From positions 1-63,394 of the forward strand of contig JAHINB010000017.1 in the NCBI GenBank assembly GCA_018896215.1: DNA of 63,394 nt, in the 5' to 3' direction. This document shows positions 42,424 to 62,319 of the stretch, piece by piece; the first letter of the stretch is position 1; each line of letters starts with the position of its first letter. The notes below the pieces were generated by a model that did no database searches, was not told the origin of the DNA, and saw only the letters and a program-made list of their open reading frames with translations. This DNA is from Patescibacteria group bacterium. Lineage in GTDB: Bacteria; Patescibacteriota; WWE3; 0-14-0-20-40-13. The position numbers and the translations under genes are program-made.

Positions 42424-42445
42424 TTTCGGGTGACACCCGAAAAAT
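42424..42445. repeat. family A minimal palindrome (TTTTCGGGTGACACCCGAAAAA) in the lexA leader
   Basis: Arms as in 27611-27658 and 56430-56484, without a loop. Confidence 0.7.
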
Positions 42446-45343: not shown

Positions 45344-45353
45344 TTTTAAATTT

Positions 45354-46346: not shown

Positions 46347-46358
46347 TTTATAGAGCTT

Positions 46359-47357: not shown

Positions 47358-47366
47358 AGAATGATA

Positions 47367-47618: not shown

Positions 47619-47621
47619 TTC

Positions 47622-48098
47622 CTAAAAAGGAATTTCCTCTCCCGCCACATCTTCTTTAACTTCTTTTGATTCGGTCTTTTCCTCTTTTGACGCTTCTTCG
47701 GGTTCTACAACTGGCGCTTCCACCGGCTCTTTGGCAACTGTTTCCGTTACCATACCCCCTGTTCTTCCCCGCTCTAAAACCACCATATCGTCGGCAACTA
47801 TCTCGGTTTTGTAGTGTTTTGCCCCACTGGTGTCATCCCAATTCCTAGTTTGCAATCTCCCCTGCACAAAAACTCGGGTCCCTTTTTGTAATAATTGTGA
47901 GCAAAGTTCGGCTAATTTGTTCCAGGATACAATATTGTGAAATTCGCTCTCTTCGCGCACTTCGCCTCTTTCGGTTTTCCAGCTTCTATTTGTAGCAACC
48001 GCAAAACTTGTGACCGCGCTTCCTGACGGCGTATATCTCATTTCGGGATCGCGGGTTAAATTTCCCAAAACCATCGCCTGATTTATAGATCGTGACAT
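47622..48098 (-). CDS. ssb: single-stranded DNA-binding protein
   Basis: OB fold with N-terminus INQAMVLGNLTRDPEMRYTPSG, and an acidic tail ending EEIPF. Confidence 0.93.
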   Translation of the reverse strand: MSRSINQAMVLGNLTRDPEMRYTPSGSAVTSFAVATNRSWKTERGEVREESEFHNIVSWNKLAELCSQLLQKGTRVFVQGRLQTRNWDDTSGAKHYKTEIVADDMVVLERGRTGGMVTETVAKEPVEAPVVEPEEASKEEKTESKEVKEDVAGEEIPF

Positions 48099-48134
48099 TT
48101 ATATAAAGTTTGCGCCAAAAGATAAAAGCTGTCT

Positions 48135-48434
48135 TTATCTTTTAACCTTGGGCTTTGACTTTTTAGCAACAGTGATTAAACTTCTAATAATATTTTCTTG
48201 CAACTTAAGCTTTTTGACAAAGTTGGCGTATTCTTTTTTGGGAAGGTTAAACAGTACCGTAGCGTAAATACCCTCCACATCTTTGTTTATCTTGTAGGCA
48301 AATTTTTTCTTTTCGGCTGGTTCTTCTTTAACAACCTTACCGCCAAGGGAAGAAATGAGAGCAACCAGTTTAGCTTGCTCTTCTTTAACAGTCGCTGTTG
48401 ATTTTAAGATATATGTCAGTTCGTACAATTGCAT
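48135..48434 (-). CDS. rpsF: 30S ribosomal protein S6
   Basis: MQLYELTYILKS from Met at 48434. Part of the rpsF-ssb-rpsR order. Confidence 0.88.
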   Translation of the reverse strand: MQLYELTYILKSTATVKEEQAKLVALISSLGGKVVKEEPAEKKKFAYKINKDVEGIYATVLFNLPKKEYANFVKKLKLQENIIRSLITVAKKSKPKVKR

Positions 48435-48558
48435 ACTGGGTGGGATATTAGCAAATGAAAGGTGGACTAGCAAGCTTTTGTTTGTTGTGGTATAATTCTC
48501 CTAGTTTTGGGACTGTCCCAAAGCATAATCCCCCTACCACACAAAAAGGAGTGTTCCC

Positions 48559-49434
48559 ATGTTTCACAAATCGTTGTTCGTTCTGCTCGTCGTAGTTTTT
48601 CTGATGTTCCCCTACCCCATCAGCACCGTAGCCTCACCCAACAGCCCGCTTGGGCTCTATGTCGAAACGCCAAAGCGCATCGAAATCCCCATCGGAATCT
48701 CAAAAACGGCGGGGATCGTAGATTGGGTCGCCGAGGTAACGAATCGCTCGGACGAGGTCCAAAACCTCGCCACTCTTGAGATCGGCATCCTGTACAACAA
48801 CACAGGTGCCGATGGCATTGCAATAATGAATGCCAATGTCACCTGCTACGATGACATGGGACTTACGAGATGCGAATTGCCCGCCCTTGCTCCGGGCGAA
48901 ACTTTCGCACTTCGGGCCTATGCCAAGCCCACTCGGGCCGGACACCTTGTCGTCCAGTTTGCTCTCTCCGGTCATCACACCCTTGTCACCTCACAAGAGG
49001 ACACGCAGATTGACTACGGGCCCGATAAGTACGAGCCCAACGACACCTGCAAACAGGCGACTGCGGTTGAACCGGATCGCGGGACGATGCACTACTTGTC
49101 CATCAGCCCCGCCGACTTGGGGGATTGGTTCACGAGGACCGTCCCGCCCGGGCGGAAACGGACATATGGGCTAGAGTTGAGCTACGACAGCCTCGAGGGA
49201 CCCATCGAGGGGTCCATCCAGAACTTCTGCGATGCAGAGGCGTCCGCGACAGTCAACTGGAATTCCAGCATTGACGCTGGATCCGAACCCATCATAGGTG
49301 GCGGGATCGTCATCCGCCGCTATACTCTAACCCTCGACCCCGGGCAGTACTGGGTACGGCTGACATCACAACACCAAACCCGCTACAACGCCCGCTTCTG
49401 GGAGAAGCAATACTTCCTCCCACTCGTCAGATAG
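48559..49434 (+). CDS. GC-rich secreted protein with pre-peptidase C-terminal (PPC)-like domain (cassette 6)
   Basis: AAGGAG-N7-ATG. Signal peptide MFHKSLFVLLVVVFLMFPYPISTVAS. The YEPNDTCKQAT motif opens a PPC-type beta-sandwich. GC3-rich codons. Confidence 0.65.
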   Translation: MFHKSLFVLLVVVFLMFPYPISTVASPNSPLGLYVETPKRIEIPIGISKTAGIVDWVAEVTNRSDEVQNLATLEIGILYNNTGADGIAIMNANVTCYDDMGLTRCELPALAPGETFALRAYAKPTRAGHLVVQFALSGHHTLVTSQEDTQIDYGPDKYEPNDTCKQATAVEPDRGTMHYLSISPADLGDWFTRTVPPGRKRTYGLELSYDSLEGPIEGSIQNFCDAEASATVNWNSSIDAGSEPIIGGGIVIRRYTLTLDPGQYWVRLTSQHQTRYNARFWEKQYFLPLVR

Positions 49435-49494
49435 CCCAAAGACCCTTCCAGAAAGTCCGCCACTTGGGACATTTTGGGAGGGTTCGTTTTTTTG

Positions 49495-49570
49495 TTTTAT
49501 TTGTAATTTGGAATTTGAGAATTGGGATTTGTTTAGATATTAGAAATTAGTAATTAGAAATTTAAAATTT
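49495..49570. repeat. AT-rich family D element copy
   Basis: ..gggatttgtttagatattagaaattag.. at the 3' end of ychF. Confidence 0.55.
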
Positions 49571-50653
49571 TTATCCCCTCCCCACCCTAAACTCCACCAC
49601 ATCTCCATCTTTGACTAAGTATTCCTTCCCCTCCAACCTTGCCATTCCTTTCTCTTTAGCTTTACCCCAACTGCCGGCTTCGATGTATTTTTGATAGGAA
49701 ATGACATCTACTGCAATAAATAATCTTTCAAAGTCGCTATGGATAACACCAGCGCATTTTTGGGCGTTCCAGCCTTGTTTAAATTTCCAGGCTCGGCTTT
49801 CTTTTTCCCCTGTGGTTAGAAATGTGGAAAGCCCCAACATTTTATAAGCTTGACGAATGACTCCGTCAAGGGGCGCTTCGGTGAGTCCTAAGTCGGTAAG
49901 ATAAGCATTTCGATCTACAGTTGACAATGACGAGAGTTCAAATTCAATCTTGGCGGATACTTTCATACGGGACGATCTCATTTCATCCGGGTTCGTCCCA
50001 TTTGGGACGAACCCGATTGAATCCTCAGAAACATTTAGCACAGGTAAAATAGGTTTTAAGGTTAGCAAATTAAACCCTTGTAATTCCTCCAATTCTTCTT
50101 TGGTCCACTTCCCGTTCGCCAATAATTTCCCTGCATCGAGAACCCCCACAGCTTTTTTCAAAACATTGGGGTAGTACCCCGCAGGGGTACTACCCCCTTT
50201 CTTCCTAATCTCCTTTGAGTCCACGACCTTTGATAAAATCTCCAAATCCTTTAGCTTTAATTCCGTGAGTAGCACCTCCCTATCGCTTTCTGGATTGATA
50301 GAGCCCTCTCGAATAATTTCCGCGTCCTCAAAATCTCTTAGAAGTAGAAGGATTAGGTCGACTTCCCTGATATGGGCTAAAAACTTGTTTCCCAATCCCG
50401 CGCCAGTGGATGCACCTTTGACCAGACCAGCGATGTCTATAAATGTGATAGTTGAGTACACTTTTTTGGCAGAGTGCGAAAGTTCTGCCAATTTGTCAAC
50501 CCGACTATCTAAAACTTCGACGACTCCCGTGTTCGGCTCAATAGTAGCAAAAGGGTAATTAGCAACACAGGCTATTTGACGCTTTAAAATAGCGTTAAAT
50601 AAAGTGCTTTTTCCCACATTGGGCAACCCCACAATCCCCACGGACAAACTCAT
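49571..50653 (-). CDS. ychF: ribosome-binding ATPase YchF
   Basis: GIVGLPNVGKSTLFNA, DIAGLVKGAS and a C-terminal TGS-like domain ending DGDVVEFRV. Confidence 0.93.
   Translation of the reverse strand: MSLSVGIVGLPNVGKSTLFNAILKRQIACVANYPFATIEPNTGVVEVLDSRVDKLAELSHSAKKVYSTITFIDIAGLVKGASTGAGLGNKFLAHIREVDLILLLLRDFEDAEIIREGSINPESDREVLLTELKLKDLEILSKVVDSKEIRKKGGSTPAGYYPNVLKKAVGVLDAGKLLANGKWTKEELEELQGFNLLTLKPILPVLNVSEDSIGFVPNGTNPDEMRSSRMKVSAKIEFELSSLSTVDRNAYLTDLGLTEAPLDGVIRQAYKMLGLSTFLTTGEKESRAWKFKQGWNAQKCAGVIHSDFERLFIAVDVISYQKYIEAGSWGKAKEKGMARLEGKEYLVKDGDVVEFRVGRG
49964..50019. repeat. family C composite (GGGACGATC.. / GGGTTCGTCCC-attt-GGGACGAACCC) in frame in ychF
   Basis: Translated as ..SIGFVPNGTNPDEMRSSRMK.. 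Confidence 0.7.
50165..50200. repeat. family B palindrome in frame in ychF
   Basis: GGGGTAGTACCCC-gca-GGGGTACTACCCCC is translated as KKGGSTPAGYYPN. Confidence 0.8.
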
Positions 50654-51035
50654 ATGTTAGGTAAATTAAATAACGAGCTTGTCGAATCCATTCCAATTGA
50701 CAGATTTGTAGACATAACAAAGCAGTTGACAAACTAAAACTAATTTGCAAAAATAACACCAATCATGAGGGGGAAACGCTGATATACTCAAGTGGTATAT
50801 TGAAACGCCCCCCACTTTCATTTCCACTCAACATTATTCCTATAAAGCTCTAAAAAAACCTTAAGTTCTGGCTGTCTATAAAAGCATATATTTTTAACCG
50901 CTTATTCTTCTTTTTTATCACGAGAGAATTTTAGCACAGTATTGAGAAATAGGAATATAGTGAGTTGAAGTGTGGGGTAAATTCCTGCTAGAAACAAACT
51001 TGTTTATACAGTACCATGCGCTTGTGCCTGGTAAT

Positions 51036-52418
51036 CTACTTGTCCTGTACTTTGACACCTAACGCCTCTAACTGTTTTCTTAAACTATCCGCTAGAGCAT
51101 AGTTTTTGCTGGCTCTTGCGCGATCCCGCTGGGCAATTAGTTTTTTTGCTTCTTGCGGAATCTCTTTGACAAAGTCATCCTGATCCAGATTTAATCCCAA
51201 AACTTTGTCCCATTCTAAAAGCTTTTGTACAGCCTGCGACTGGTAACCGTTCTTTTTGGACTCGTTGACGAGCTCCCAAACTACCGCCATAACTTTAGGC
51301 ATGTTTAGATCGTCAGCTAAAGCATTAGCAAATTTTTTCTCGAAAAAATTTGCCAAATTAGACCAATTAGACAAATTAGTCAAATTCGGCCAATTCCCAG
51401 AAACAAAACCATACAATTTTTCTAACGCTTTACTACTCGCATCAAGTGCCTCCCAGGAAAAAGCGATAGTTTGCCTCCAATGGGAGCTGTAAGTATATAA
51501 TTTGTAAGCCAAGGGGTCATAACCTTTATCAATTAGAGTTTGCAAAGTCAAAAAATTCCCCGCGGATTTTGCCATTTTTTCTTCTTTTTCGGCATTTAAA
51601 AAACCCGCGTGGAGCCAATAATTTGCCATTTTGCGACCAGTTGCCACTTCGGTTTGGGCAATTTCGTTAGGATGGTGAATTTCCTTATGATCAATTGCGC
51701 CAGTGTGAATATCAAATGGGGCACCCAAATGCTTAAGCGAAATCGCCGAACACTCAATGTGCCACCCCGGAAAACCAATTCCCCACGGCGAATCCCATTC
51801 CATAGCGCGCTTTTTTCCAGAGATATTAAACTTCCACAAAGCAAAGTCGCGAGGATTCTTTCTTTCGGGATTGACATCTACACGAGCCCCTTCGATGATT
51901 CCAGAGTCTCGCAAAGACGACATCTGACCATACTCGGGAAATTTTTTAGTATCGAAGTAAATTCCATCACTTGTTTTGTAGGTTAGACCTTTTTCTTCTA
52001 ATTGAGAGATGAGACTAATTTGTTCAGGAACGGTATCGGTGGCTTTTTCCCACACAGTTGGGGGAAGCAAGTTGAGCCGTGCCATATCGCTCTTAAACGC
52101 CTTGAGGTAGAATTCAGATAATTCCCATGCGGTCATATTTTTTTCGGCAGAGGCTTTCTCTACTTTGTCCATCCCCATGTCACCATCGCCAGTAAGATGT
52201 CCCACATCGGTTACATTCATTACTCGTTTTACTTGGTAGCCAAAATAGGTTAATGCTCGAACCAGTAGGTCGTTAAAAATATAGGTACGGAGATTTCCAA
52301 TATGGGCATAGTTATAAACCGTCGGACCACAGGTATACAACCCTACATGGTTGGGTACAATTGAAACGAATTCCTCTTTTTTTCCCGTAAGCGAGTTGTA
52401 AAGTTGCAATTTATTCAT
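51036..52418 (-). CDS. cysS: cysteinyl-tRNA synthetase
   Basis: YTCGPTVYNYAHIGNLR (HIGH region) and KMAKSAGN (KMSKS). Confidence 0.95.
   Translation of the reverse strand: MNKLQLYNSLTGKKEEFVSIVPNHVGLYTCGPTVYNYAHIGNLRTYIFNDLLVRALTYFGYQVKRVMNVTDVGHLTGDGDMGMDKVEKASAEKNMTAWELSEFYLKAFKSDMARLNLLPPTVWEKATDTVPEQISLISQLEEKGLTYKTSDGIYFDTKKFPEYGQMSSLRDSGIIEGARVDVNPERKNPRDFALWKFNISGKKRAMEWDSPWGIGFPGWHIECSAISLKHLGAPFDIHTGAIDHKEIHHPNEIAQTEVATGRKMANYWLHAGFLNAEKEEKMAKSAGNFLTLQTLIDKGYDPLAYKLYTYSSHWRQTIAFSWEALDASSKALEKLYGFVSGNWPNLTNLSNWSNLANFFEKKFANALADDLNMPKVMAVVWELVNESKKNGYQSQAVQKLLEWDKVLGLNLDQDDFVKEIPQEAKKLIAQRDRARASKNYALADSLRKQLEALGVKVQDK
51349..51397. repeat. family E repeat in frame in cysS
   Basis: ccaaattagaccaattagacaaattagtcaaattcggccaatt is translated as NWPNLTNLSNWSNLAN. 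Confidence 0.75.
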
Positions 52419-52434
52419 AAATTCCTCTAAACCA

Positions 52435-53022
52435 CTAGCTGACGGTTCGACCTTCGAGGGCTCTCTTTAAAGTTGTCTCATCGGCATATTCAATATCCGC
52501 CCCCGTCGGCAACCCCCTCCCAATTCGGGTGATTTTGACGCCCTCTATGTTACTAAGCTTTTCTTTGATGTAAAGAGCGGTGGCTTCTCCTTCCAAATCG
52601 GGATTAGTGGCAATAATAATTTCTTCTCCCCAAAAAACTCTCTCAACCAGGTCGTCAATAAACAGCTCCTCGGGTCCTATGCCCGCTATTGGATTGATGG
52701 ATCCATGCAAGACATGATAAACGCCACGATAACCCGATTTTTCAAAAGCCAGTACATCTAACGGGGATTGTACCACCAAAATGGTGTTTTTATCGCGAGT
52801 AAGATCGGAGCAAACGGCGCAAATATCGTTTTCCCCAACATTTTTGCAAATGGAGCAGATTTTGGTTTGTTTTAAATTACTAACAGAACTGGAAAACAAA
52901 TCCAAATCAGCTTGCGGGACGCGCAATAAGTGAAAAGTGAGTCGCTCGGCAGTTTTAGGACCAATTCCAGGCAATTTCTCAAAAGAGTCTTTTAGATTTT
53001 GTAAGGGTTTTGGTAACTTCAT
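52435..53022 (-). CDS. recR: recombination protein RecR
   Basis: LPGIGPKTAERLTFHLL HhH, C4 zinc finger CSICKN...CAVC, and Toprim. Confidence 0.93.
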   Translation of the reverse strand: MKLPKPLQNLKDSFEKLPGIGPKTAERLTFHLLRVPQADLDLFSSSVSNLKQTKICSICKNVGENDICAVCSDLTRDKNTILVVQSPLDVLAFEKSGYRGVYHVLHGSINPIAGIGPEELFIDDLVERVFWGEEIIIATNPDLEGEATALYIKEKLSNIEGVKITRIGRGLPTGADIEYADETTLKRALEGRTVS

Positions 53023-54584
53023 ACAGGAACCTCTCCATCAAACACCTCCCAGGCTTCTTTTGCTTTTGTTGACTCCGACTGCTCGGGTTCTATATTTTTG
53101 TCGCTTAAATCCTTTTCTACCGGCAATTTTTTGCCCAACACCACGGCAAGCAAAACCGGTCTACCCAAAATTTCCGATGCGGCATCCTCGACAATTCTAC
53201 GGCTGGATGGAACCGACAGCCTTTCTTTGTGAAAAGAGTAAAAAGCCTCGACAATTAAACGGTCTTTATCAATCCCCACAATCTTGCAAGAGCGCAGTAG
53301 CGCCTCAACCGAGTGGTTTCTAGGTCTTACCGCTTCGTAAAGCGCCTCTTTGGTAAACGGGGCTTTTCCAATTCGATCGGGTACTACCCCTATTGTCTCT
53401 TTTTTCGGGGAGACACCCCTAAAGGCATTGGGATCCTGTTTTTGGGGTGTCTCCCCAAAGTACCCGCCCGCCTCCTCTGTTTCTTCTTTCTTAAAATCAA
53501 CAGTGGCTACTAACAACGGCAAATGTCCCACCGAGGCGTAACGAATCTGCCCTTTTGCCTCCAGAAATTTCTTGATAACAGTTGAAATAAATTCTATTGA
53601 GACCTTCTCCAGCCCCTCTTTGGCAAATTCCGTCTCCCCCACCCCCAACTTTTCCATCAGCAATGCTTTCAAAAACTCCAAAAAATTATCCACCCAGTTT
53701 TCGGCGGTAATTCCACCTTCAAAAATTTTCTCTAGGTATAAAACCCCCGCTTTAGCATTTCCAGTTGATAAATTTAGAAGAAAATCAATAAATTGATCCG
53801 AATCTGATGTAACAACCAAATCGTCCACCGTCACCTTGCCAAAAACCACCTGCTCCAGCATGGTTTCGGAGTCTCTAAAGCCCCCTTGCGAGGCTTGAGC
53901 AATTTTTTTAAGGTCGCCATCTGTTAAATCGGGAATTGGCGTTCCCTCTTTTTTTTCGGCAGTGATAATGCGTTCCAGCTTTTTCGTGATATCTATGATG
54001 GAAGCCCGCTTAAATTCAAACTTTTGGCATCGGCTTCTGATAGTATCGGGGACTTTTCTACTTTCGGTAGTACACAAAACAAAGACAGCGTGCTTTGGCG
54101 GCTCTTCTAGGGTTTTTAAAAGAGCGTTAAAGGCCTCGGCAGTTAACATGTGCACCTCGTCAATAATGTAGACCTTGTATTTTGCTTGAGCGGGCGACAA
54201 AATTATGCGATCCCGCAGAGTTCTAATGTCATCTATTCCGCGGTTGCTGGCGGCGTCAATTTCTATCACATCAATAAAACTGCCGTTTTCGATAGCTTTA
54301 CAGGTTGGACATTCTCCGCAGGGATCGTGTTTATCGGGGTCGAACCCCAATGAAAGATCGGGTGCCTTCTTAGGGGTTCGACCCCTATGTTCCCCAATGT
54401 TTTCGCAATTCAATGCCTTCGCCAAAAGCCTTGCCATTGTCGTCTTTCCCGACCCCCGAGGTCCATAAAAAAAGTAGGCGTGGGCAAAGTTTTTTGTCGC
54501 GATCGCCGAAAGAATTGCTGTTGACAGCGATGCAGAACCTAAAAACTCGCTAAAATTTTTGGGGCGGTATTTGGTATAGAACAC
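53019..54584 (-). CDS. dnaX: DNA polymerase III subunit gamma/tau
   Basis: GPRGSGKTT, Zn module CGECPTC, DEVHML, LLKTLEEPP and SRC. Confidence 0.93.
   Translation of the reverse strand: MFYTKYRPKNFSEFLGSASLSTAILSAIATKNFAHAYFFYGPRGSGKTTMARLLAKALNCENIGEHRGRTPKKAPDLSLGFDPDKHDPCGECPTCKAIENGSFIDVIEIDAASNRGIDDIRTLRDRIILSPAQAKYKVYIIDEVHMLTAEAFNALLKTLEEPPKHAVFVLCTTESRKVPDTIRSRCQKFEFKRASIIDITKKLERIITAEKKEGTPIPDLTDGDLKKIAQASQGGFRDSETMLEQVVFGKVTVDDLVVTSDSDQFIDFLLNLSTGNAKAGVLYLEKIFEGGITAENWVDNFLEFLKALLMEKLGVGETEFAKEGLEKVSIEFISTVIKKFLEAKGQIRYASVGHLPLLVATVDFKKEETEEAGGYFGETPQKQDPNAFRGVSPKKETIGVVPDRIGKAPFTKEALYEAVRPRNHSVEALLRSCKIVGIDKDRLIVEAFYSFHKERLSVPSSRRIVEDAASEILGRPVLLAVVLGKKLPVEKDLSDKNIEPEQSESTKAKEAWEVFDGEVPV
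53376..53459. repeat. family B half-copy plus full family A palindrome, in frame in dnaX
   Basis: Translated as YFGETPQKQDPNAFRGVSPKKETIGVVPD. Confidence 0.8.
54334..54388. repeat. family C variant (GGGGTCGAACCCC ... GGGGTTCGACCCC) in frame in dnaX
   Basis: Translated as HRGRTPKKAPDLSLGFDPD, immediately before the Zn module. Same arms as 55288-55381 in pth. Confidence 0.8.
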
Positions 54585-54699
54585 CCTATAATTATTAACA
54601 CGCCTTGGATTTTTAGCAACCTCTTGTTTAAAATCGTAATTTGTTATAATCTTTAACCAACTAAATTTAACATCAAAGGAGGTCGTATTTTAAAAAACC

Positions 54700-54894
54700 A
54701 TGGTAAAAATAAATATTGAATCGGGTGAGACGATTGAGCAAGCGCTAAGGCGTTTTAATCGCATTATCCAAGAAGAGGGAATTATTGACGAAGTCAAAGA
54801 AAGGCAGTTTTACATCAAGCCTTCTGTGACAAGACGACTCAAAGACAAAGAAAAATTAGCTAAAATTAAAAGGGACAAGAGATACAATAGGTAA
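54700..54894 (+). CDS. rpsU: 30S ribosomal protein S21
   Basis: ETIEQALRRFNRIIQEEGIIDEVKERQFYIKPS..RR; AAAGGAGG SD. Confidence 0.9.
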   Translation: MVKINIESGETIEQALRRFNRIIQEEGIIDEVKERQFYIKPSVTRRLKDKEKLAKIKRDKRYNR

Positions 54895-54930
54895 ATGCTT
54901 CTAGAAACACTTAAAACCAACCTGCTCGAA

Positions 54931-54986
54931 TCTTTCGGGGAGACACCCCTAAAGGCAAGGAATTGTTTTGGGGTGTCTCCCCTAAA
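54931..54986. repeat. family A palindrome, intergenic
   Basis: TTTCGGGGAGACACCCCTAAAGGCA...GGGGTGTCTCCCCTAAA. Confidence 0.85.
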
Positions 54987-55001
54987 TCCCCATAAATTCC
55001 T

Positions 55002-55640
55002 CTAAATTCCTTTAAAGATTGGGTTCTTTACAATTCTTTCGAACACTCTTTGCAATTCCTCTAACTCCTCGGGGTTAAAATCGTTTAGCACAAAATCCTC
55101 GGCTTTTTGTTCGTGATGATTGTAGTGATGTGGCGCCACCCCAATTCTTATTCTCCAAAAGTCCCTTGTGCCTAATTCTTCGATGATTGATAAAACTCCT
55201 TTGTGACCGCTAGCGCTAACTCCAAAGGAAATTTTGAACTTACCCAAGGGAATATCCATATCGTCATGGACAATGACAAAGTCATCATTGGGGTCGAACC
55301 CCAATACACCTGCCCGCAACGCTTCGCGTAGCGAGGCGGGCGGGGGATCGAATGCATTTTTCATAGGGGTTCGACCCCTTAGATCATCCAGTCCCTGACG
55401 GGACGATCCCGAAGTAAAGCGGAGGGTTCGTCCCGAATGAGAATGTCTCCCCAAAATTCTTAAAACTTCTCCTCCCGACTGGTTCATAAAACAGTTGGTT
55501 TTAATGCCTTTTTCACCCGAAAAACAGTTTAAAAAATCCGCAAACAGATGACCCGCATTATGGCGAGTCTTTTCATATTTTCTCTCTTTATTCCCCAAAC
55601 CAATTATAAGCATAGCTTCTGAGCTAACTATCTCCTTCAT
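55002..55640 (-). CDS. pth: peptidyl-tRNA hydrolase carrying a ~50-aa repeat-derived insertion
   Basis: LIIGLGNKERKYEKTRHNAG, MNQSGG, VHDDMDIPLGKFK and GHKGVLSI. Confidence 0.88.
   Translation of the reverse strand: MKEIVSSEAMLIIGLGNKERKYEKTRHNAGHLFADFLNCFSGEKGIKTNCFMNQSGGEVLRILGRHSHSGRTLRFTSGSSRQGLDDLRGRTPMKNAFDPPPASLREALRAGVLGFDPNDDFVIVHDDMDIPLGKFKISFGVSASGHKGVLSIIEELGTRDFWRIRIGVAPHHYNHHEQKAEDFVLNDFNPEELEELQRVFERIVKNPIFKGI
55288..55439. repeat. two adjacent family C elements (GGGGTCGAACCCC..GGGGTTCGACCCC; GGGACGATCCC..GGGTTCGTCCC) in frame in pth
   Basis: Translated as SGRTLRFTSGSSRQGLDDLRGRTPMKNAFDPPPASLREALRAGVLGFDPN. Confidence 0.8.
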
Positions 55641-55908
55641 GATGCACCCCCAACAAATGCTTCACCCCATGCTCCACCAACCGCGCTACTTCTTGTTCCA
55701 ACGACTGATGATTTTCCAACGCTTGGGTAGAGGCTTTGTCTAAGTTGACAATTACATCCCCCAAATAATATCTTCCATCGGGCAGTTCTTCGTTCATGTT
55801 AAAAGACAAAACATCTGTCGCATAGTCACGCTTGAGGTGTTTTTTATTGAGCTGGTGAATTTCCTTATCCCCCACAAGGGATATATTTATGAATGTATTT
55901 TTACGCAT
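55624..55908 (-). CDS. ybeY: endoribonuclease YbeY, N-terminally short
   Basis: TDVLSF and the H-x3-H-x5-H region HGVKHLLGVHH. Only 94 aa. Confidence 0.75.
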   Translation of the reverse strand: MRKNTFINISLVGDKEIHQLNKKHLKRDYATDVLSFNMNEELPDGRYYLGDVIVNLDKASTQALENHQSLEQEVARLVEHGVKHLLGVHHEGDS

Positions 55909-57209
55909 ATTGGCTTTTTTCGGGGAGACACCCCAAAACCATCCCTTGCCTTTAGGGGTGTCTCCCCAAAAGATTCTTCTCTTTTCTTTACTTCCGCCCC
56001 CCCCTGCCTAAGCGACTTTTCTGACACAATTATCCTCGTGGGACAACCAATGAGGTCGGCGTCCTTTATCTTTACCGCTAAAGATTCTTCGCGGTCATCT
56101 AGCAACGCATCGTTTCCTTCGCTAATCAACTTAGCATACAAAACATTAGACTGCTTGACAGCTTCGGGGTGATTGTTATCACAAAGAATATGGTATTTAA
56201 ATGGGGCAATATTTTCGGGCCAGATAATTCCGTTTTCGTCGTGACATAACTCCACAATGGTTCCCATTAACCTACCTACTCCAATACCATAAGCCCCAGC
56301 AATTACTGGCTTCTTTGAGCCGTCTTCGTCTGTAAAGAACAACCTCATGGGTTCGGTAAATCTAGTTCCCTGTTTAAAAATGTTCCCAACCTCAATGGAA
56401 TTAACAAATTCTGCTGTTTTGTCTTTTTCTTTCCGGGTGACACCCCTAAAGGCATTTGTCTGTTTTGGGGTGTCACCCGAAAAACCTTCCTCTCCATAGA
56501 TCTCTTTATTAATTGCAGTACCCTTTTCTTTGTCAATGTATATCCTATCTTCTCCCGCCTCACAAACAGTTTGATATTCGTGGGAATATTTACTAAAAGA
56601 TCCCCCACTTGCCAAAGTAAAATATGTTTTCTCCCCAATTCCCAGTCGGTCAAAAATTTTAGTATAGGCTTGCTTTGCTAATTCGTAAAATTCATCTAGT
56701 TGAGAATCATCCGCAGTAAAGGAATACAGATCTTTCATCATAAATTCGCGAGTGCGAAGCAATCCACCTTGAGCCCTTTTTTCGTTGCGGTATTTTGTCT
56801 GAAATTGATACACAAAACATGGCAAGTCTTTATAAGAATTAATATGACTTGTCATAAGTCTTGCCAAGGGCTCTTCGTGGGTAAATGAAAGCCCCACCTC
56901 TGAACCGTTGACAAGTTTTGTTTTAAACCATGAGTCCACTACTTTGTCATCCCAACGCCCGCTAGCCTTCCACACTGCTGGATCCTGCAAACTACTCATT
57001 AAAATCTCTTGGCCCCCAATGGCATTCATTTCTTCTCGAATGATCTGGATGATTTTATTGAGAACAATCAGACCTAAAGGCAAAAAGCTATACACCCCCG
57101 CCATTTCTTTATGGATAAAACCCCCGCGGATGAGCAATTTGGCGTTAATGCTAGTTTCGTCTTTAGGCGTCTCTCTTTTGGTTTTGGTAAATAACTTTGT
57201 TTGGTGCAT
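55887..57209 (-). CDS. proS: prolyl-tRNA synthetase (no editing insertion domain) with two family A insertions
   Basis: Class II motifs (FRDE-like TREFMMKD, GAYGIGVGR) and a C-terminal anticodon-binding domain. Start is MHQTKLF at 57209. Confidence 0.9.
   Translation of the reverse strand: MHQTKLFTKTKRETPKDETSINAKLLIRGGFIHKEMAGVYSFLPLGLIVLNKIIQIIREEMNAIGGQEILMSSLQDPAVWKASGRWDDKVVDSWFKTKLVNGSEVGLSFTHEEPLARLMTSHINSYKDLPCFVYQFQTKYRNEKRAQGGLLRTREFMMKDLYSFTADDSQLDEFYELAKQAYTKIFDRLGIGEKTYFTLASGGSFSKYSHEYQTVCEAGEDRIYIDKEKGTAINKEIYGEEGFSGDTPKQTNAFRGVTRKEKDKTAEFVNSIEVGNIFKQGTRFTEPMRLFFTDEDGSKKPVIAGAYGIGVGRLMGTIVELCHDENGIIWPENIAPFKYHILCDNNHPEAVKQSNVLYAKLISEGNDALLDDREESLAVKIKDADLIGCPTRIIVSEKSLRQGGAEVKKREESFGETPLKARDGFGVSPRKKPICVKIHS
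55915..55972. repeat. family A palindrome forming the 3' end of proS, just upstream of the ybeY start
   Basis: Translated as SFGETPLKARDGFGVSPRKK. Confidence 0.85.
56430..56484. repeat. family A palindrome (opposite orientation) in frame in proS
   Basis: Translated as FSGDTPKQTNAFRGVTRKE. Confidence 0.85.
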
Positions 57210-57239
57210 TTTCTTATATTTTCCTAAACTTCTTCTTAT

Positions 57240-57296
57240 CAAATTAGACTAATTAGTCAAATTAGTCAAATTAGACCAATTCTTTAATTAGACCGA
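57240..57296. repeat. family E repeat, intergenic, at the boundary of the accessory array
   Basis: aaattagactaattagtcaaattagtcaaattagaccaattc. Confidence 0.7.
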
Positions 57297-57833
57297 TTTG
57301 TTTTTGTAATCTAAACGCTTTTTAAACAGGTTTTCTCTAAATCCCCCATTTTTTACAAATTCCTCTTCTAACGACCTATAAAAATTATCTAGTAAATAGG
57401 TTTCTTTGTAGATCAAACAAACCATTATGTTTGCAGAGTCTTCTGGTTTTTCCAAAGACAAATTGCACCAATTGGTCAAATTGGACAAATTAGTCGAATT
57501 TGCAACTTCTTCTTTAAAAGAACGAATTTTTAAAACACGGGGGTCGTTTTTATCCCAAAGGGTAAGTTTGTTAATACGCAAAAAATCTTTGTAATCTTCT
57601 AGCAATTCACCAAAACTGGCGCGAGCAACGCTAACAAGTTTTAATTTGCTTTCACAACTTTTCTCTAAAACACCTTCCACAATGTTCTGTTTGCAACTCC
57701 TTGCTGCTTGAACCATTTGTTCTACAGTTCTTTTAAATGCAAAGGTTTTTAAATATTTTTGGCAAAACGCATCGTTGGCATCGTAAATTGTTGTTGCTAG
57801 CCTGTAAACTAACAAATTTTCGTATTTTTGCAT
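57288..57833 (-). CDS. four-helix-bundle protein (23S-IVS/S23p-like family) with C-terminal suffix domain
   Basis: YENLLVYRLA..., QMVQAARSCKQNIVEG and VARASFGELLEDYKDFL follow the four-helix-bundle family pattern. Confidence 0.65.
   Translation of the reverse strand: MQKYENLLVYRLATTIYDANDAFCQKYLKTFAFKRTVEQMVQAARSCKQNIVEGVLEKSCESKLKLVSVARASFGELLEDYKDFLRINKLTLWDKNDPRVLKIRSFKEEVANSTNLSNLTNWCNLSLEKPEDSANIMVCLIYKETYLLDNFYRSLEEEFVKNGGFRENLFKKRLDYKNKSV
57459..57503. repeat. family E repeat in frame in the four-helix-bundle gene
   Basis: Translated as NSTNLSNLTNWCNL. Confidence 0.7.
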
Positions 57834-57835
57834 TT

Positions 57836-58267
57836 TTAAACCCCCTCCTTAAACTTCTGCCAGGTTTTTTGCAGGTGCAGGATTTTGTACCTTACTGTTA
57901 GATAGGATTTTATAATTTCGGAATGTGACTGGCTGTCCAAGACAGGGGCAACTCCGGCACCGGGACGGACAAGATCTCTAAACAACTCCAAATGCACCAC
58001 CGCTAAATTACAATTTAGCATCGCAAGCTCCAAAGTTTCTTGAGACCCTTTAAAATCGTCAAAACGGATTGAGTGAGCTTTAGCTATGAGACGAGGTAAA
58101 TCCACTACATATTTTATCAGGGGGTTTTTAATCAATTCCTCAAGTAGTGGCGTGGTCTGACAATCATTGACAGCCTTTACCACCATAACCCCATTTGCCA
58201 GAAGTTTTTGGTAAATTTCTAAATCCTGAAAACTTTTAACCGGTCTTCTTGGGTAGTATTTAATCAT
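57836..58267 (-). CDS. divergent four-helix-bundle-like protein
   Basis: The N-terminal SFQDLEIYQKL matches the family start. The rest is helical but diverged. Confidence 0.45.
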   Translation of the reverse strand: MIKYYPRRPVKSFQDLEIYQKLLANGVMVVKAVNDCQTTPLLEELIKNPLIKYVVDLPRLIAKAHSIRFDDFKGSQETLELAMLNCNLAVVHLELFRDLVRPGAGVAPVLDSQSHSEIIKSYLTVRYKILHLQKTWQKFKEGV

Positions 58268-58271
58268 AGTT

Positions 58272-59708
58272 TTACAATTTACCTGGTCTTACCTCAATAA
58301 CCTTCTTCTCCTCCTCATTGATATGGTATTTACCTTCTATCGTAGTTACCGTCTTCCTTCTTCTTGTTTTAGACGGTTTATACAAAACATGCAAGGGATA
58401 AAATTCAAAATAGTCTTTTTCATCAAACCAGGCGCATTTAAATTCAAACAGTCGTAATCCCGTCAACCGTGAGAGCGCCATCGCGTATATGGTAAGTTGG
58501 TCAATTGGCTGTTCTTTGGCGGCGTTGGGCTTGTAATCTAGGATATGAATTTGCCCATTACGAATTTGAACGAGGTCTATGTGTCCGGTAATAAGCTTTG
58601 GGAGCCCAGTGCCGACATTGCTTATATCTTCTGATCCTTGTCCCATTGCCGGTGTTGCACCTTGCTTCTGCAAATCGTCCCTATCGGGACTTTGTGACTG
58701 GCTGACCGTCCCGGTGCCGACATTGCCCCTATCTTCTGATCCCTGTCCCTCCCTTACCGAAATTTTGTTAAAAATCTCGAAGCCAAGTTGTGTCTGCATA
58801 TGCAACAAATCCTCGCGAGTGATGTAAACTGGCACTTCGGTTGCCACGGTCACGGAGTCGTTGAATAAAAAGAATTTTTGCACCGCCTCGTGTCGCATAG
58901 TACGAGCTTTGACACTTTGTAAGATGAATTGGCATAATTTAACAGCATAGTTGACTTTACTGCGAACAATCATCTGCTTTTTGGAAAATGTGATGGGCGC
59001 CTCCGATGCCCTACATCCGCCCTCGCTGGCAAAGTATTGATGGGGGCATTCCGAAGGCACAAGTTCCAAAAATTCTTTTAAGGGGGCAAATTTGCGGTGA
59101 GCGTATTCCTCTTGAATCATCAGAGCGCATTTAGCGCGGTGAAAGCGGTAGCGATAAAGCTGGCGGTGAGCAAGCGTTGCTGTAACTACGGTGTTTTTCG
59201 GCTCGTACTTTTTTACCACAAACTCTCGCATCCGTTGATATTTGCAATATTCCCCAAATTCCATCAACCAGGCCGAGACCGTCGACGGCTGAAGGGAAAA
59301 TCTAATATCTAAATTCGAAATTCTAGATAAATCCAAATTTTCCAAATTAGAATGTTCCAAATCTTTTTGTTTTGTGTTTTGAGCATTCATATTTTGAGTT
59401 TGTTTAGGATTTAGGGTTTCGGGTTTAGAATTTATTATTGTACAAGTCCCTTCCAACGAATGCCCCAGATTATAGAGGCTCAACGCGTTAAAAACAGTCT
59501 CCAGCGGATAGTGTTTGCCTAAATTTTTTTGCGGGGTAAAAGTTCTTCCACAGCTTTGACAGAGGTAAAGCTGAATTTTTTCGTACTTTTTTTGCCTAAA
59601 ACCCCGCCTCACAAAGCTTTTGCTTTGGCAGTACGGGCAACAAAATGTGTCGTAGATTGGTTTTTTACTTTCCAAATGTTTGAAGGAATTATAGTCGTGC
59701 AATCTCAT
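58272..59708 (-). CDS. Zn-ribbon (IS1 InsA-like CxxC..CxxC) + RecB/Cas4-like PD-(D/E)XK nuclease-domain protein
   Basis: N-terminus CPYCQSKSFVRRG...LCQSCGRTF. C-terminus EVPVY...GHIDLV...ILDYKP...QLTIYA (E, D, D-x-K and Q-x3-Y motifs). Confidence 0.6.
   Translation of the reverse strand: MRLHDYNSFKHLESKKPIYDTFCCPYCQSKSFVRRGFRQKKYEKIQLYLCQSCGRTFTPQKNLGKHYPLETVFNALSLYNLGHSLEGTCTIINSKPETLNPKQTQNMNAQNTKQKDLEHSNLENLDLSRISNLDIRFSLQPSTVSAWLMEFGEYCKYQRMREFVVKKYEPKNTVVTATLAHRQLYRYRFHRAKCALMIQEEYAHRKFAPLKEFLELVPSECPHQYFASEGGCRASEAPITFSKKQMIVRSKVNYAVKLCQFILQSVKARTMRHEAVQKFFLFNDSVTVATEVPVYITREDLLHMQTQLGFEIFNKISVREGQGSEDRGNVGTGTVSQSQSPDRDDLQKQGATPAMGQGSEDISNVGTGLPKLITGHIDLVQIRNGQIHILDYKPNAAKEQPIDQLTIYAMALSRLTGLRLFEFKCAWFDEKDYFEFYPLHVLYKPSKTRRRKTVTTIEGKYHINEEEKKVIEVRPGKL
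58605..58749. repeat. two ~40-bp direct repeats 105 bp apart, around a GTCCC-tatc-GGGAC palindrome, in frame between nuclease motifs
   Basis: Unit 58605-58644 versus unit 58710-58749. Translated as GQGSEDISNVGTG and GQGSEDRGNVGTG. Confidence 0.75.
59301..59433. repeat. complete AT-rich family D element in frame in the nuclease gene
   Basis: Translated as NSKPETLNPKQTQNMNAQNTKQKDLEHSNLENLDLSRISNLDIR. Confidence 0.7.
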
Positions 59709-60420
59709 CTCTAAGCAAACTCAAAACCTCGCTTTTTAAAGCTTTTCTTATAGAAGAAAACCTTGCAAGAGGCATTAACATGTTTAGATCTTCATCAATT
59801 ACCGAAGAGGTAACCTTTGATTCAACGAATTCTTTAAGTTTTTTTAAATAATCCAAAGTGTTCAAAGAAGTCCTTTGCTCAATCACTTTTTTGTTGTAGG
59901 GATATCCGTTGACAAAAAAATAATATATATCGTATATATCTCTACCTGCCACGGTCCCGTGTTTAGTGTAGCGATCCAGAACCGCCACCAATTTGTGAGC
60001 AAACATAGTATCTATTGTTTGACAAGTAAGATATCTATCAATATCCGCTAAATAAGTGGGTTTAAAAACATCAGAATCTAAAGCGAATCCAACGGCGTCA
60101 AATTTTAAAGTGTTGCGCAACTCTTTTGGAGCTGAATATTTTAACACATACTGTACCGTGGACTTGTTTCTGTTTTTAATGTTAAAATCTAGTTTTTTAA
60201 AAATCTCTTCCAGCGCCGTCCTTACAAAGTCTTTTGGAGTTTCTTGCTTTAAGTCAAAATCCAAATCAACGGAAAACCTGTCCAAATAATCTTGCATAGC
60301 GGCGCATGTCCCCCCTTTAAATATAAGAGCTTTGGAAAGTTGAGGGCTGTCCGCAATTTCTATTAGTATTTTGTGTAACTGGCTCCTATGCAAAGCTTCT
60401 TTTGGACTTGGTAAAATCAT
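59689..60420 (-). CDS. AbiEii/AbiGii-family nucleotidyltransferase toxin (type IV TA)
   Basis: LIFKGGTCAAMQDYLDRFSVDLDFD matches the DUF1814 signature (KGGTA..R.S.DlDF). Confidence 0.8.
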   Translation of the reverse strand: MILPSPKEALHRSQLHKILIEIADSPQLSKALIFKGGTCAAMQDYLDRFSVDLDFDLKQETPKDFVRTALEEIFKKLDFNIKNRNKSTVQYVLKYSAPKELRNTLKFDAVGFALDSDVFKPTYLADIDRYLTCQTIDTMFAHKLVAVLDRYTKHGTVAGRDIYDIYYFFVNGYPYNKKVIEQRTSLNTLDYLKKLKEFVESKVTSSVIDEDLNMLMPLARFSSIRKALKSEVLSLLRDEIARL

Positions 60421-60959
60421 ATATACCCCACCTCCTTTTGGATGGTTTTGACTCTTTCCCAGTCAATGGCGTTTCTTAAGTCAAAATGATATTTGGAGTT
60501 AAAATAAAGCATATCCGCAACCGCTCTCTCGGGACTGGCTTCTTTGTAGTTTTGTTGTTCCAAGATACCTGCGCTTTGGAATAAAAAGGCAGGTTTTAAT
60601 TTCCGACTAATAAATGATGTTCCGTTAATATTAATTTTTTTATTCTTTGATGAACAAAAGGTGAAATGTGGGACACTTTGGAAGATGATGCCGTCTTTTG
60701 CTAACACTGATTCTGTGCTTAGGTAGCAGTAATCGTGGATTGCGGAAGTTCCTAATTCTGTGGCGTTAATAGTGTTTAATTCCACAGTGGAGTAGAATCC
60801 GCGATATATCTGAATTAAGTAACCCTTTTTTAAATACCTGTTGATTGTTGAATACAAGGTGTTTTTATTGTTTATGTTCCACAATAATTCAAGATCTTGG
60901 GTGTGGAACAGCTTTTTCGATTGTTTAAGCAGAACATCTAGTTTGTTTATACTTTGCAT
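60417..60959 (-). CDS. AbiEi-family antitoxin-like protein
   Basis: Lies upstream of AbiEii with a 4-nt overlap. wHTH-like LYSTINRYLKKGYLIQIYRGFY. Likely start is MQSINK at 60959. Confidence 0.65.
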   Translation of the reverse strand: MQSINKLDVLLKQSKKLFHTQDLELLWNINNKNTLYSTINRYLKKGYLIQIYRGFYSTVELNTINATELGTSAIHDYCYLSTESVLAKDGIIFQSVPHFTFCSSKNKKININGTSFISRKLKPAFLFQSAGILEQQNYKEASPERAVADMLYFNSKYHFDLRNAIDWERVKTIQKEVGYI

Positions 60960-60989
60960 ATATGAATAGTATACTACAACCAACAGAAC

Positions 60990-61041
60990 TTTACCACACT
61001 GCAATCCAATACAATTTTTGCTCCGCCGTTGGCGCAGTCCC
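60990..61041. repeat. 52-bp perfect direct repeat, copy 1
   Basis: tttaccacactgcaatccaatacaatttttgctccgccgttggcgcagtccc, identical to 62268-62319. Confidence 0.9.
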
Positions 61042-61048
61042 CTATTGA

Positions 61049-62221
61049 TCAATAGAAATTATCTATGGTAATCAATTTTACTTTAGCATTGGGATACCTG
61101 TTATTAAAAGCGGAGCAAGCCCTTCCTTTTGCGGTTTTTATTTCGCAGGCAATTACTTCTTCGCCTTGATGTAAAACAAGATCAACCTCGGCTCCTTGAA
61201 CAGTGCGCCAAAAAGCTAATTTATATCCCGCGTTGCTGTATACATTGTGTTTTAATATTTCGCCGATGACAAAATTTTCAAACATCGCTCCAAAATCCCT
61301 TCGTAAAAATGGATTGGAGAAATCTTCTATTACGGCATTTCTCAATCCAAGATCATAAAAATATATTTTTGGCGCCTTGCCTATTTCGTCCCGTCTTTTG
61401 CTTGTGAACGGGTATAAACGGAAGAGAATAAAGCTTTGCTCAAAAATGGATATGTATCGCTGGACTGTTCTCGCGTCAACCCCAAGTTTTGCGGCAAGTT
61501 CGGAATAGTTGATTAGATTGCCGATTTGATAGGCAAGTAGTTTTAGAAGATTAGAAGCTACCGCGCGGTTTTCAATTAGGTTAAGCTCAAAAATGTCTTT
61601 ATAAATTGACGAGGACGCCAGTTCGCTTAAATATAAAGAGTCGGACGGGTTTTGGACTAGATACGGGTTTAAACCGTAAGTAAGTATTCTGCCAACAGTT
61701 GCGGAAAGGTCGAATTGATGAATTGACGGGGATAATTTTCCGGAAACCAGCCTTTCTAAAAAGTTATCGTGGAGTTCCTCCTCTGTTCTGGTTTGATACA
61801 AATATTCGGAAAAAGTAAGAGGGAATAATTGGTAGTCTATTTTGCGCCCGGCAAGGCTTTCAGACGCGGTATTTTTGATATTTAGGGCGGAAGATCCCGT
61901 GATAATAAGTTGTACATTCGGCATTTGATCATAAATAATCTTCGCCGCGCGCCCGGGGTCTGGCAGTAACTGGATTTCATCAATAATTACGGTTTTACTG
62001 CTTTGCGACCCGATAAATTGGCGATATGAATGGATATCATAAGTTTCAAAGTTTTTTCGCGCGGGGTCGTTGTCCAGCAAAAAATATTGCGCCTCGGGAA
62101 AAAGTCTTTTCAGCAAAGTGGTTTTGCCTACTTGCCGCGCTCCTAAAAGCAGAAGTATCTGCCTTCGGTTTTTAAAGTGGGATTTGATTTGGGAATCAAT
62201 CTGCCTTGTTAAAAGATTCAT
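61049..62221 (-). CDS. AAA+ ATPase with DUF4143-type C-terminal domain
   Basis: Walker A GARQVGKTTL, Walker B VIIDEIQ. 390 aa, same size as the ATPase at 30803-31975. Confidence 0.75.
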   Translation of the reverse strand: MNLLTRQIDSQIKSHFKNRRQILLLLGARQVGKTTLLKRLFPEAQYFLLDNDPARKNFETYDIHSYRQFIGSQSSKTVIIDEIQLLPDPGRAAKIIYDQMPNVQLIITGSSALNIKNTASESLAGRKIDYQLFPLTFSEYLYQTRTEEELHDNFLERLVSGKLSPSIHQFDLSATVGRILTYGLNPYLVQNPSDSLYLSELASSSIYKDIFELNLIENRAVASNLLKLLAYQIGNLINYSELAAKLGVDARTVQRYISIFEQSFILFRLYPFTSKRRDEIGKAPKIYFYDLGLRNAVIEDFSNPFLRRDFGAMFENFVIGEILKHNVYSNAGYKLAFWRTVQGAEVDLVLHQGEEVIACEIKTAKGRACSAFNNRYPNAKVKLITIDNFY

Positions 62222-62267
62222 ATGTTGTTTTGATTATAATCATTGATACATATAAATGTCAATTAGT

Positions 62268-62319
62268 TTACCACACTGCAATCCAATACAATTTTTGCTC
62301 CGCCGTTGGCGCAGTCCCT
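62268..62319. repeat. 52-bp perfect direct repeat, copy 2 (last 16 codons plus stop of the tail-fibre-like gene)
   Basis: Identical to 60990-61041. Confidence 0.9.

Follow-up and report, generated by a model that had tools for sequence, protein, structure and literature searches.

Stacked REPIN-like palindromic repeats lie in frame within the peptidyl-tRNA hydrolase gene of a Patescibacteria bacterium

In the REPIN-RAYT systems of Pseudomonas and Escherichia coli, doublets of repetitive extragenic palindromic (REP) sequences form hairpins that are dispersed by single-copy REP-associated tyrosine transposases, or RAYTs (PMC3116915; PMC5581495), and a transposase gene flanked by such doublets is the defining arrangement (PMC5581495). 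Excisions of REPINs in P. fluorescens are asymmetric, leave a few conserved-end bases behind and release a hairpin with a 5' tail (PMC3116915). Rickettsia palindromic elements (RPEs; Ogata et al., 2000) are single elements of about 100–150 bp, restricted to Rickettsia and translated into additional peptide segments that the protein fold is thought to tolerate; a review of them names no transposase (PMC10969869). Small non-autonomous repeats such as Coxiella QMITEs and intragenic ERIC/BOX sequences also produce occasional in-frame fusions or insertions in open reading frames (ORFs) (PMC5896051; PMC10969869). Here we describe stacked REPIN-like repeats within the peptidyl-tRNA hydrolase gene (pth) of a Patescibacteria group bacterium, on contig JAHINB010000017.1 of assembly GCA_018896215.1. 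The analysis covered this one stretch of 63,394 nt of the genome, hereafter the window, together with about 19 kb of sister-strain DNA. In the literature searched, coverage of which was incomplete, we found no report of in-frame palindromic elements or intragenic REPINs in Patescibacteria.

The pth gene of the window is an intact PF01195 gene that carries in-frame palindromic repeat DNA between helix alpha2 and the strand of the catalytic Asp. The gene and the parts of its insert are as follows.

55002–55640, minus strand: pth (peptidyl-tRNA hydrolase), a 212-aa ORF counted from the first ATG, identified by PF01195, by Pth matches in the PDB and by its AlphaFold core
55288–55456, minus strand: the whole repeat-derived in-frame insert, about 169 nt or 56–57 codons, approximately residues I62–N118
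55290–55378: TCGAA-type REPIN-like doublet (GGGG-TCGAA-CCCC), arms GGGGTCGAACCCCAAT (55290–55305) and ATAGGGGTTCGACCCC (55363–55378), encoding RGRTP...GFDP
55309–55344: GC-rich palindrome nested in the loop of the TCGAA doublet, arms CCTGCCCGCAACGCTTCG and CGTAGCGAGGCGGGCGGG, located by a repeat finder
55399–55435: ACGAT/ACGAA-type REPIN-like doublet (GGG-ACGAW-CCC), arms CGGGACGATCCC (55399–55410) and GGGTTCGTCCCG (55424–55435), encoding SGRTLRFTSGSSR
55441–55456, minus strand: truncated GAGAC-type arm (GGGG-AGACA-CCCC), TTTTGGGGAGACA on the coding strand, encoding ILGRH at the end of helix alpha2
55506–55524, minus strand: polymorphic site, TTTTTCGGGTGAAAAAGGC in the window and a complete GTGAC doublet, 39 nt longer, in the sister contigs L001 and L002

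PF01195 matches the ORF at E = 2.1e-34 (119 bits, the cut-off being 27), its match broken in two by the insert, and solved Pth structures likewise align on both sides of it. The motifs GLGN..TRHNAG, MNQSGG, VHDDMDIPLG and GHKG are all present, and N17, H27, N53, D126 and H146, the equivalents of N10, H20, N68, D93 and H113 of the E. coli enzyme, are invariant in the Pth alignment. Profile and catalytic residues thus both place the protein in the Pth1 family, and the observation of the initial annotation that the motifs are intact on either side of a frame-keeping insertion is borne out. The true start is likely M10 at 55613, which is where the sister-strain protein P0001 is annotated to begin.

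The initial annotation had recognized two adjacent hairpin elements spanning 55288–55439. Both are there, by direct reading of the sequence and by the repeat finder, but the stack is more complex than a pair: it has three to four components, since a nested palindrome and the truncated GAGAC arm had been missed, and the repeat-derived stretch runs on to 55456. Counted by parts, at least four are repeat-derived (two doublets, the nested palindrome and the truncated arm). The 16-nt arms of the TCGAA doublet are 94% complementary around a 57-nt loop, and those of the ACGAT/ACGAA doublet 92% complementary around a loop of 13 nt; copies related to the latter lie at 39890–39940, 42307–42317 and 49989–50014. 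The truncated arm contains the 13-mer TGTCTCCCCAAAA at 55444–55456. There are ten TGTCTCCCCNAAA sites, against 0.03 expected by chance, and the pth copy is the sole one outside a complete element. At 57% GC, the insert also stands apart from the remainder of pth (39%), and its peptide includes GRTPMKNAFDPPPASLR. Relative to typical homologues the protein has gained about 48 residues, or 56 relative to the shortest, which agrees with the earlier estimate that about a quarter had been added to the enzyme. As this net gain falls a little below the repeat-derived length, about nine native residues appear to have been replaced.

Comparison with other Pth proteins supports the view that these extra residues, about 50 in number, are repeated palindromic elements and not a conserved domain. 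A homologue search returned 596 proteins at E ≤ 1e-10, and the insert was looked for among the 120 best listed. Only P0001 carried it, a strain-level relative (98% identical) represented by two NCBI assemblies of 'Patescibacteria group bacterium'; the others were mostly 140–170 aa long. The possibility raised by the initial annotation, that sister proteins would have a homologous, non-repetitive domain of 50 residues at the same site, found no example among these 120. Named relatives belong to Microgenomates-type bacteria of the Candidate Phyla Radiation (CPR), among them Gottesmanbacteria and Curtissbacteria. The nearest Pth proteins without the insert are only about 50–54% identical, and there is no closer empty-site relative. 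From the SG of MNQSG to the HDD motif, about 20 residues are typical and 15 are found in the shortest protein (P0002), compared with 68 in the window protein. The length of this loop varies among homologues, and unrelated inserts occur in P0017, P0081 and P0046/P0059; the site is therefore a permissive one.

Some of these relatives have repeats or hairpins of their own. In the pth gene of P0046 (contig L186, 2843–2947 and 3068–3147), arrays of an 8-nt tandem repeat (AGGTYAAC) and its complement add about 21 residues in the loop that holds the window insert and about 15 in a second loop. The pth gene of P0004 has a 14-bp stem immediately after MNQSG that codes for the native helix without lengthening the protein (RNA fold z = −3.8). 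In the 20.5 kb of its contig, L187 (CAZLQR010000010.1, GCA_964561915.1), there are 15 perfect hairpins whose stems measure 10 bp or more, where about one would be expected. No two share their GC-rich sequence, and genes contain most of them, one example being at 10151–10192; this excess may have been generated by template switching.

An AlphaFold model of the window protein, built on 95 sequences, offers a view of how the fold might accommodate the insert. The core is predicted with high confidence (predicted local distance difference test, pLDDT, mostly >90) and matches solved Pth structures with template modelling (TM) scores of 0.64–0.71, normalised to the target. Residues ~67–118 of the insert have pLDDT values of 45–71 with two short helices, and are bracketed by a helix (55–66) and a strand (121–131). 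N53 is the counterpart in the alignment of Asn68 in the E. coli Pth active site and stands ahead of helix alpha2, and D126 lies after the returning strand, so the insert would emerge at the far end of helix alpha2; we infer this position from secondary structure and the general Pth fold. As regards the structural check suggested by the initial annotation, the modelled core is intact and the insert is an excursion predicted with low confidence.

The design of the pth elements recurs throughout the window. Inverted pairs of GGG-N5-CCC arms number 19 in 63 kb, whereas 200 first-order Markov simulations gave a mean of 0.025 and a maximum of 1; the motifs of the individual subfamilies likewise far exceed chance expectation. 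Each unit has an A/T-rich or TCATT flank, a stem of three or four G, an asymmetric 5-nt core, a stem of three or four C and a complementary flank; an element is an inverted doublet of two such units, 1–30 nt apart. The subfamilies, named by core, are distributed in the window as follows.

AGACA core (GAGAC type): five doublets
TGACA core (GTGAC type): two doublets and a solo unit at 42423–42443
TCGAA core: two doublets
ACGAT/ACGAA core: about three copies
TACTA core: five doublets and a solo unit
ATAAT core: two doublets

When eight GAGAC and GTGAC copies were aligned with their flanks, the elements had sharp ends and a conserved loop, AAAGGCAAGGNATNG, and occurred in both orientations; beyond the palindrome itself, no target duplication was visible in this alignment. 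Ten of the 19 doublets lie in frame inside ORFs, four extend over gene 3' ends and five are intergenic. With a coding density of about 88%, the intergenic DNA of the window is still enriched in doublets, and short-loop doublets occur at gene 3' ends and between convergent genes. The in-frame doublets fall in dnaX, proS, ychF and pth (two each), a DHH phosphoesterase gene (one) and the N-terminal region of yebC (one). Copies in and beside genes other than pth are the following.

54333–54388: TCGAA doublet, in frame in dnaX; arms 54336–54351 and 54371–54386, the same as the pth arms
53379–53460: solo TACTA unit (53379–53389) and GAGAC doublet (53403–53460), both in frame in dnaX, a second example of stacking
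49963–50021: ACGAA doublet and ACGAT half-unit, in frame in ychF; arms 49989–49999 and 50004–50014, partial arm 49967–49977
50168–50196: TACTA doublet, in frame in ychF (GGSTPAGYYP)
56430–56483: GTGAC doublet, in frame in proS (SGDTPKQTNAFRGVTR)
55918–55971: GAGAC doublet that makes up the C-terminal tail of the proS ORF, immediately upstream of ybeY
54933–54986: GAGAC doublet directly downstream of pth, at the place of yqeY in L001
27608–27660: GTGAC doublet, in frame in a DHH/DHHA1 phosphoesterase gene
16916–16969: GAGAC doublet in the N-terminal extension of a yebC/TACO1-family ORF

The arms of the two pth doublets do recur in dnaX and ychF, as had been noticed at the outset. Compared with E. 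coli gamma/tau, the TCGAA doublet of dnaX is a clean insertion of about 20 residues in a loop of the zinc module. The yebC doublet may instead belong to the 5' untranslated region, should translation truly begin downstream of it. The repeats are open in two to four of six frames, and their peptides contain 28% Gly+Pro (11% in the proteome) and little Ile or Val, G-E/D-T-P...G-V-S-P being an example. Given this openness and the Gly/Pro/Thr/Ser/Arg-rich peptides, in-frame survivors can be expected to be common.

Scans of wider contig collections for these elements added little. The exact GAGAC-type doublet had no matches in the collection of genome contigs or in viral contigs, and the TCGAA-type doublet had none in viral contigs. 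The general G4-N5-C4 doublet pattern matched 63 times in genome contigs, all in unrelated bacteria and none of them Microgenomates-like, and these look like ordinary hairpins judging by pattern and hosts. A looser pattern, too loose to be discriminating, returned from metagenome contigs generic ACACCCCAAAA...TTTTGGGGTGT hairpins and no true family members among the matches listed. In Rfam only three tRNAs passed the gathering threshold in the window, and nothing around pth reached E ≤ 1.

Two sister contigs, L001 (GCA_043812435.1) and L002 (GCA_043825695.1), are about 99% identical to window positions 44786–63353 and reveal that pth varies between strains. The composite insert is identical in all three. 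At 55506–55524, L001 and L002 have an extra 39 nt, amounting to 13 codons in frame and giving GDTPKPSLAFRGVTRK; this is the only element-sized indel in about 19 kb of collinear sister DNA. The window allele keeps one end of the GTGAC element, the missing piece starting midway through the left unit and ending where the right unit ends, and as a single strand that piece would be a hairpin with a 5' tail. To judge from its sequence, the window allele looks like an asymmetric excision footprint. Directly downstream, yqeY (93 aa) is intact in L001 (1014–1295), while the window has in its place 72 nt at 54929–55000 that hold a GAGAC doublet, and of yqeY only the first few codons are left.

We screened the window ORFs against Pfam and found a candidate for the mobilizing enzyme, which has doublets of the same design on both sides. 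This locus and the flanking units of homologues on other contigs, which share 41–51% identity, are listed below.

35647–36312, minus strand: RAYT-like Y1/HUH transposase, 221 aa, with the HUH motif H84-Y85-H86 and the Tyr Y144 in RYIHLNP
35609–35639: TACTA doublet just 3' of the RAYT-like gene (TCGGGTACTACCCGATTCGGGTAGTACCCGA)
36366–36394: TACTA doublet immediately 5' of the gene, its order inverted with respect to the 3' doublet
L193 homologue (49% identical): GGG-TGACA-CCC on both sides, a core of the GTGAC/GAGAC type
L196 homologue: GGG-TTCCA-CCC on both sides
L197/L198 homologue: GGG-TCTAA-CCC on both sides
L199/L200 homologue: CGAGG-TCTCT-CCTCG on both sides

The ORF matches PF01797 (Y1 transposase, IS200-like) at E = 2.5e-8, and its sole NCBIfam match is NF047646 (REP-associated tyrosine transposase; 52 bits). 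H84, H86 and Y144 (in RYIHxNP) are invariant in 72 homologues. Its AlphaFold model (pLDDT 91.5) has as its top Foldseek match 4ER8_A, the E. coli RAYT in complex with its REP hairpin (E = 2.3e-7), whereas the ISDra2, IS200 and IS608 transposases score 3.8e-4 or weaker, an E-value about 1000-fold poorer. The gene lies between hisS and relA/spoT in the window; its 87% identical orthologue in L190 lies beside hisS, with TACTA doublets found only 3' of the gene (2529–2560 and 3194–3225), and a 70% identical orthologue, beside relA/spoT in L191 and near hisS in L192, has TACTA doublets on both sides. In all, six of six independent RAYT-like loci examined have same-design doublets next to the gene; of the five homologous loci on other contigs with doublets on both sides, several are from Patescibacteria. 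There are more than 7,700 homologues, several of them annotated as Patescibacteria transposases. Separately, the last codons of relA/spoT (...SGTTRFG; 35609–35632) come from the 3' TACTA doublet, and the L191 orthologue, when aligned, stops about 27 residues sooner, its total length being 44 aa less.

These observations are probably best explained by stacked REPIN-like elements that were dispersed as single-stranded hairpins by RAYT-like enzymes and filtered by selection to in-frame, loop-compatible copies, which would be translated as a tolerated flexible excursion. Non-autonomous hairpin doublets would be moved in trans, as single strands, by single-copy Y1/HUH transposases of the RAYT-like kind. 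They would land in coding DNA as well as between genes, and in this Patescibacteria lineage they are found in both; the copies surviving selection would be those that keep the frame, lack stops and sit in permissive surface loops. The pth loop after helix alpha2 may in this manner have taken a GAGAC element, now truncated, an ACGAW doublet and a TCGAA doublet that in turn took the nested palindrome. The insert would then be transcribed and translated as a flexible excursion of about 56 residues at the end of helix alpha2, with the enzyme remaining functional and the insert itself having no function.

Several points weigh against this explanation. The RAYT-like protein falls below the NF047646 equivalog cut-off (52 versus 80 bits) and is a divergent relative, and no RAYT flanked by the TCGAA, ACGAW or nested GC-rich types of pth occurs in the window or the contigs examined, so that the link between the pth subfamilies and a RAYT is drawn from shared architecture. 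The nested palindrome has just one possible second copy in the window: the GCCCGC-N-GCGGGC pattern occurs twice, in pth and at 22241–22275, against 0.06 expected. Two base differences stand beside the junction of the 39-nt indel, which was therefore not a clean excision, and no outgroup polarises it as gain or loss. The AlphaFold model gives the insert no confident position relative to the tRNA-binding face. In ychF, the doublets (49963–50196) align with native residues of H. influenzae YchF and add no net length (360 versus 363 aa); insertion alone hence does not describe every copy, and in sequence alignment these doublets seem to replace residues rather than just add them. Moreover, REPs are by definition mostly extragenic, whereas 10 of the 19 doublets here are in frame in ORFs and four lie over gene ends. 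Finally, a GTAG or CGTC tetranucleotide is conserved at one REP end, according to PMC3733652; no such terminal tag is evident here, GTAG being present only inside the core of the TACTA unit (GGGTAGTACCC), and the other subfamilies are flanked by T-run/A-run or TCATT/AATGA sequences.

Among the alternatives, the hairpins could be kept for a role at the RNA or DNA level, as an mRNA stabiliser, processing site, pausing signal or protein-binding site, with the peptide a by-product. REPs have been reported as co-opted for such roles (PMC5581495), two very stable hairpins are predicted in the insert mRNA (−80.2 kcal/mol, z = −3.9), short-loop doublets at gene 3' ends and between convergent genes resemble REP-type terminators or stabilisers, and the 14-bp perfect hairpin of P0004 occupies the same place in pth. 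However, a conserved mRNA hairpin at this site was considered and rejected, as the hairpin is strong in P0004 only (P0035, z = −0.2; P0046, z = −0.35). The elements also turn up at unconnected positions across unrelated genes, strains at 99% identity differ in having or lacking one of the pth elements, and the insert has no Rfam match, all of which leaves such a role unlikely. We consider it very unlikely that the insert has been taken into service by the protein, for example as an Arg-rich arm that helps bind peptidyl-tRNA or the ribosome. The other listed homologues do without it, its sequence is dictated by repeat DNA that is found also in intergenic copies, and the model confidence is low. 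Such a recruitment would fit the net positive charge (nine R+K against five D+E in 57 aa), the two short predicted helices and the identity of the insert in three strains, but strains at 99% identity are too close for that conservation to mean anything.

Palindromes might also arise locally, through template switching, fold-back replication errors or gene conversion, with the RAYT-like gene a bystander. The 15 unique, mostly intragenic perfect hairpins of L187 (about one expected), the absence of added length in the ychF doublets and the P0004 hairpin, and the imperfect cut of the pth indel would all suit such an origin. Local fold-back cannot be the source, however, of the same arms and loops at many unlinked window sites in both orientations, and the doublets flanking all six RAYT-like loci argue the same way; we regard a purely local origin as improbable. 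A last alternative is that pth is a decaying pseudogene, or its product inactive, while a second Pth, Pth2 or ArfB does the job. The load of three to five elements in one small gene is unusually heavy and the neighbouring yqeY has been lost in the window strain. Yet the initial annotation's own proviso, a pseudogene backed up by a second intact pth, found no counterpart: the window holds no second pth. Three independent assemblies each have an open ORF, none of the invariant Pth residues has been lost, AlphaFold predicts the core with confidence, and the same elements sit in other essential genes. Of the four or five independent events of insertion or deletion in pth, none breaks the frame, which makes a pseudogene highly improbable and argues for a functional gene under selection.

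The agreement of three independent assemblies led us to reject an assembly artefact. An intron, an intein or ribosomal bypass was set aside because the insert is about 170 nt long, lacks an Rfam match and, like every coding copy, is in frame and free of stops. In yeast mitochondria, whose genome is compact and AT-richer, GC clusters and 'byp' elements are mobile GC-rich palindromes that occur within protein-coding genes; the ribosome skips byps, which break the reading frame. The coding copies in the window, unlike byps, are all in frame and stop-free, and read-through translation is thus the simple expectation.

The window and its sister contigs show other signs of genome rearrangement. At the prolyl-tRNA synthetase locus (window 55887–57242; L002 5389–6810) the two strains encode enzymes of different types, 25% identical, between flanks of about 99% identity: the window enzyme has 451 aa, tRNA-synt_2b and HGTP_anticodon domains and two repeat elements, and that of L002 has 473 aa and a ProRS-C_1 domain. 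A 97-nt remnant of the window-type proS at L002 6812–6908 suggests recent gene displacement. About 390 nt between cysS and ychF (window 50632–51052) are absent from L001, with diverged junctions, and about 975 nt (59850–60826) are absent from L002. Beside the tRNA-Arg gene (22143–22218), positions 22238–22300 hold a sequence like the 5' half of that tRNA (GTCGTCGTAGCTTAATGGATA...) followed by a GC-rich palindrome related to the nested one of pth; this region, adjoined by an 865-aa ORF (19441–22038) for a TrwB/TraG-like type IV coupling protein, may have been left behind as a scar by an element that had integrated. Perfect 52-nt direct repeats (60990–61041 and 62267–62318) bracket an AAA_14/DUF4143 ATPase gene (61049–62221) that looks like an insertion with a long target duplication, and a second gene of this family lies at 30803–31975. 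A XerC/XerD-type tyrosine recombinase gene (Phage_integrase and SAM-like domains) at 13599–14546 had no link to the repeats that we could find.

In pth, an essential and very small enzyme bears a heavy load of probably selfish DNA, its predicted core intact, in an otherwise stripped-down genome. We also put forward, tentatively, a broader possibility: REPIN-RAYT systems may be active in this lineage, with doublets that routinely move into and out of the coding regions of essential genes, each time changing their length by a multiple of three bases. In that event, near-identical strains would come to differ in protein length, and REPIN populations would not be confined to extragenic space. This would also be the first time that RPE-like selfish DNA inside proteins could be linked to a transposase that is defined, single-copy and matched by cognate hairpins, and it would offer a mechanism where none has been given since RPEs came to light in 2000. 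That mechanism can be tested on a candidate enzyme, its cognate hairpins and a natural polymorphism of presence and absence. For CPR annotation there is a warning here, as many 'insertions' and split domain matches in housekeeping proteins may be repeat-derived.

The locus joins two literatures that have been separate, one on in-frame palindromic elements such as the RPEs and the other on REPIN-RAYT systems, which have been treated as extragenic. Like RPEs, the window elements are palindromic repeats that keep the reading frame of many housekeeping genes, unrelated to one another, in a reduced genome. They differ from RPEs in size, at 27–60 bp with stacking and nesting to about 170 bp, in their Patescibacteria host, and in being accompanied by a candidate transposase with cognate flanking repeats. 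As with MITEs, or miniature inverted-repeat transposable elements, non-autonomous repeats of small size lie in frame in ORFs; but MITEs derive from insertion sequences and have terminal inverted repeats and target-site duplications, whereas the window copies have no evident duplication and their associated enzyme is a Y1/HUH protein, not a DDE transposase. Much is shared with the REPIN-RAYT family as well. Its short palindromic units, like those of the window, are arranged as inverted doublets able to form one hairpin or two small ones; the window repeats are strongly over-represented, clustered and stacked; a Y1/HUH gene stands, in what may be a conserved chromosomal position, with doublets on both sides; its protein has the HUH motif and catalytic Tyr and is closer to RAYTs than to IS200/IS605 TnpA; and the 39-nt pth polymorphism resembles the asymmetric excisions of P. 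fluorescens. Differences lie in the shorter units (11–21 nt) of G3-4/N5/C3-4 design, in at least six core types within one 63-kb window, in the CPR host and in a protein that misses the NCBIfam threshold for RAYTs. The main departure from that family is the intragenic location of the elements, and it is in this respect that they resemble the palindromic elements of Rickettsia.

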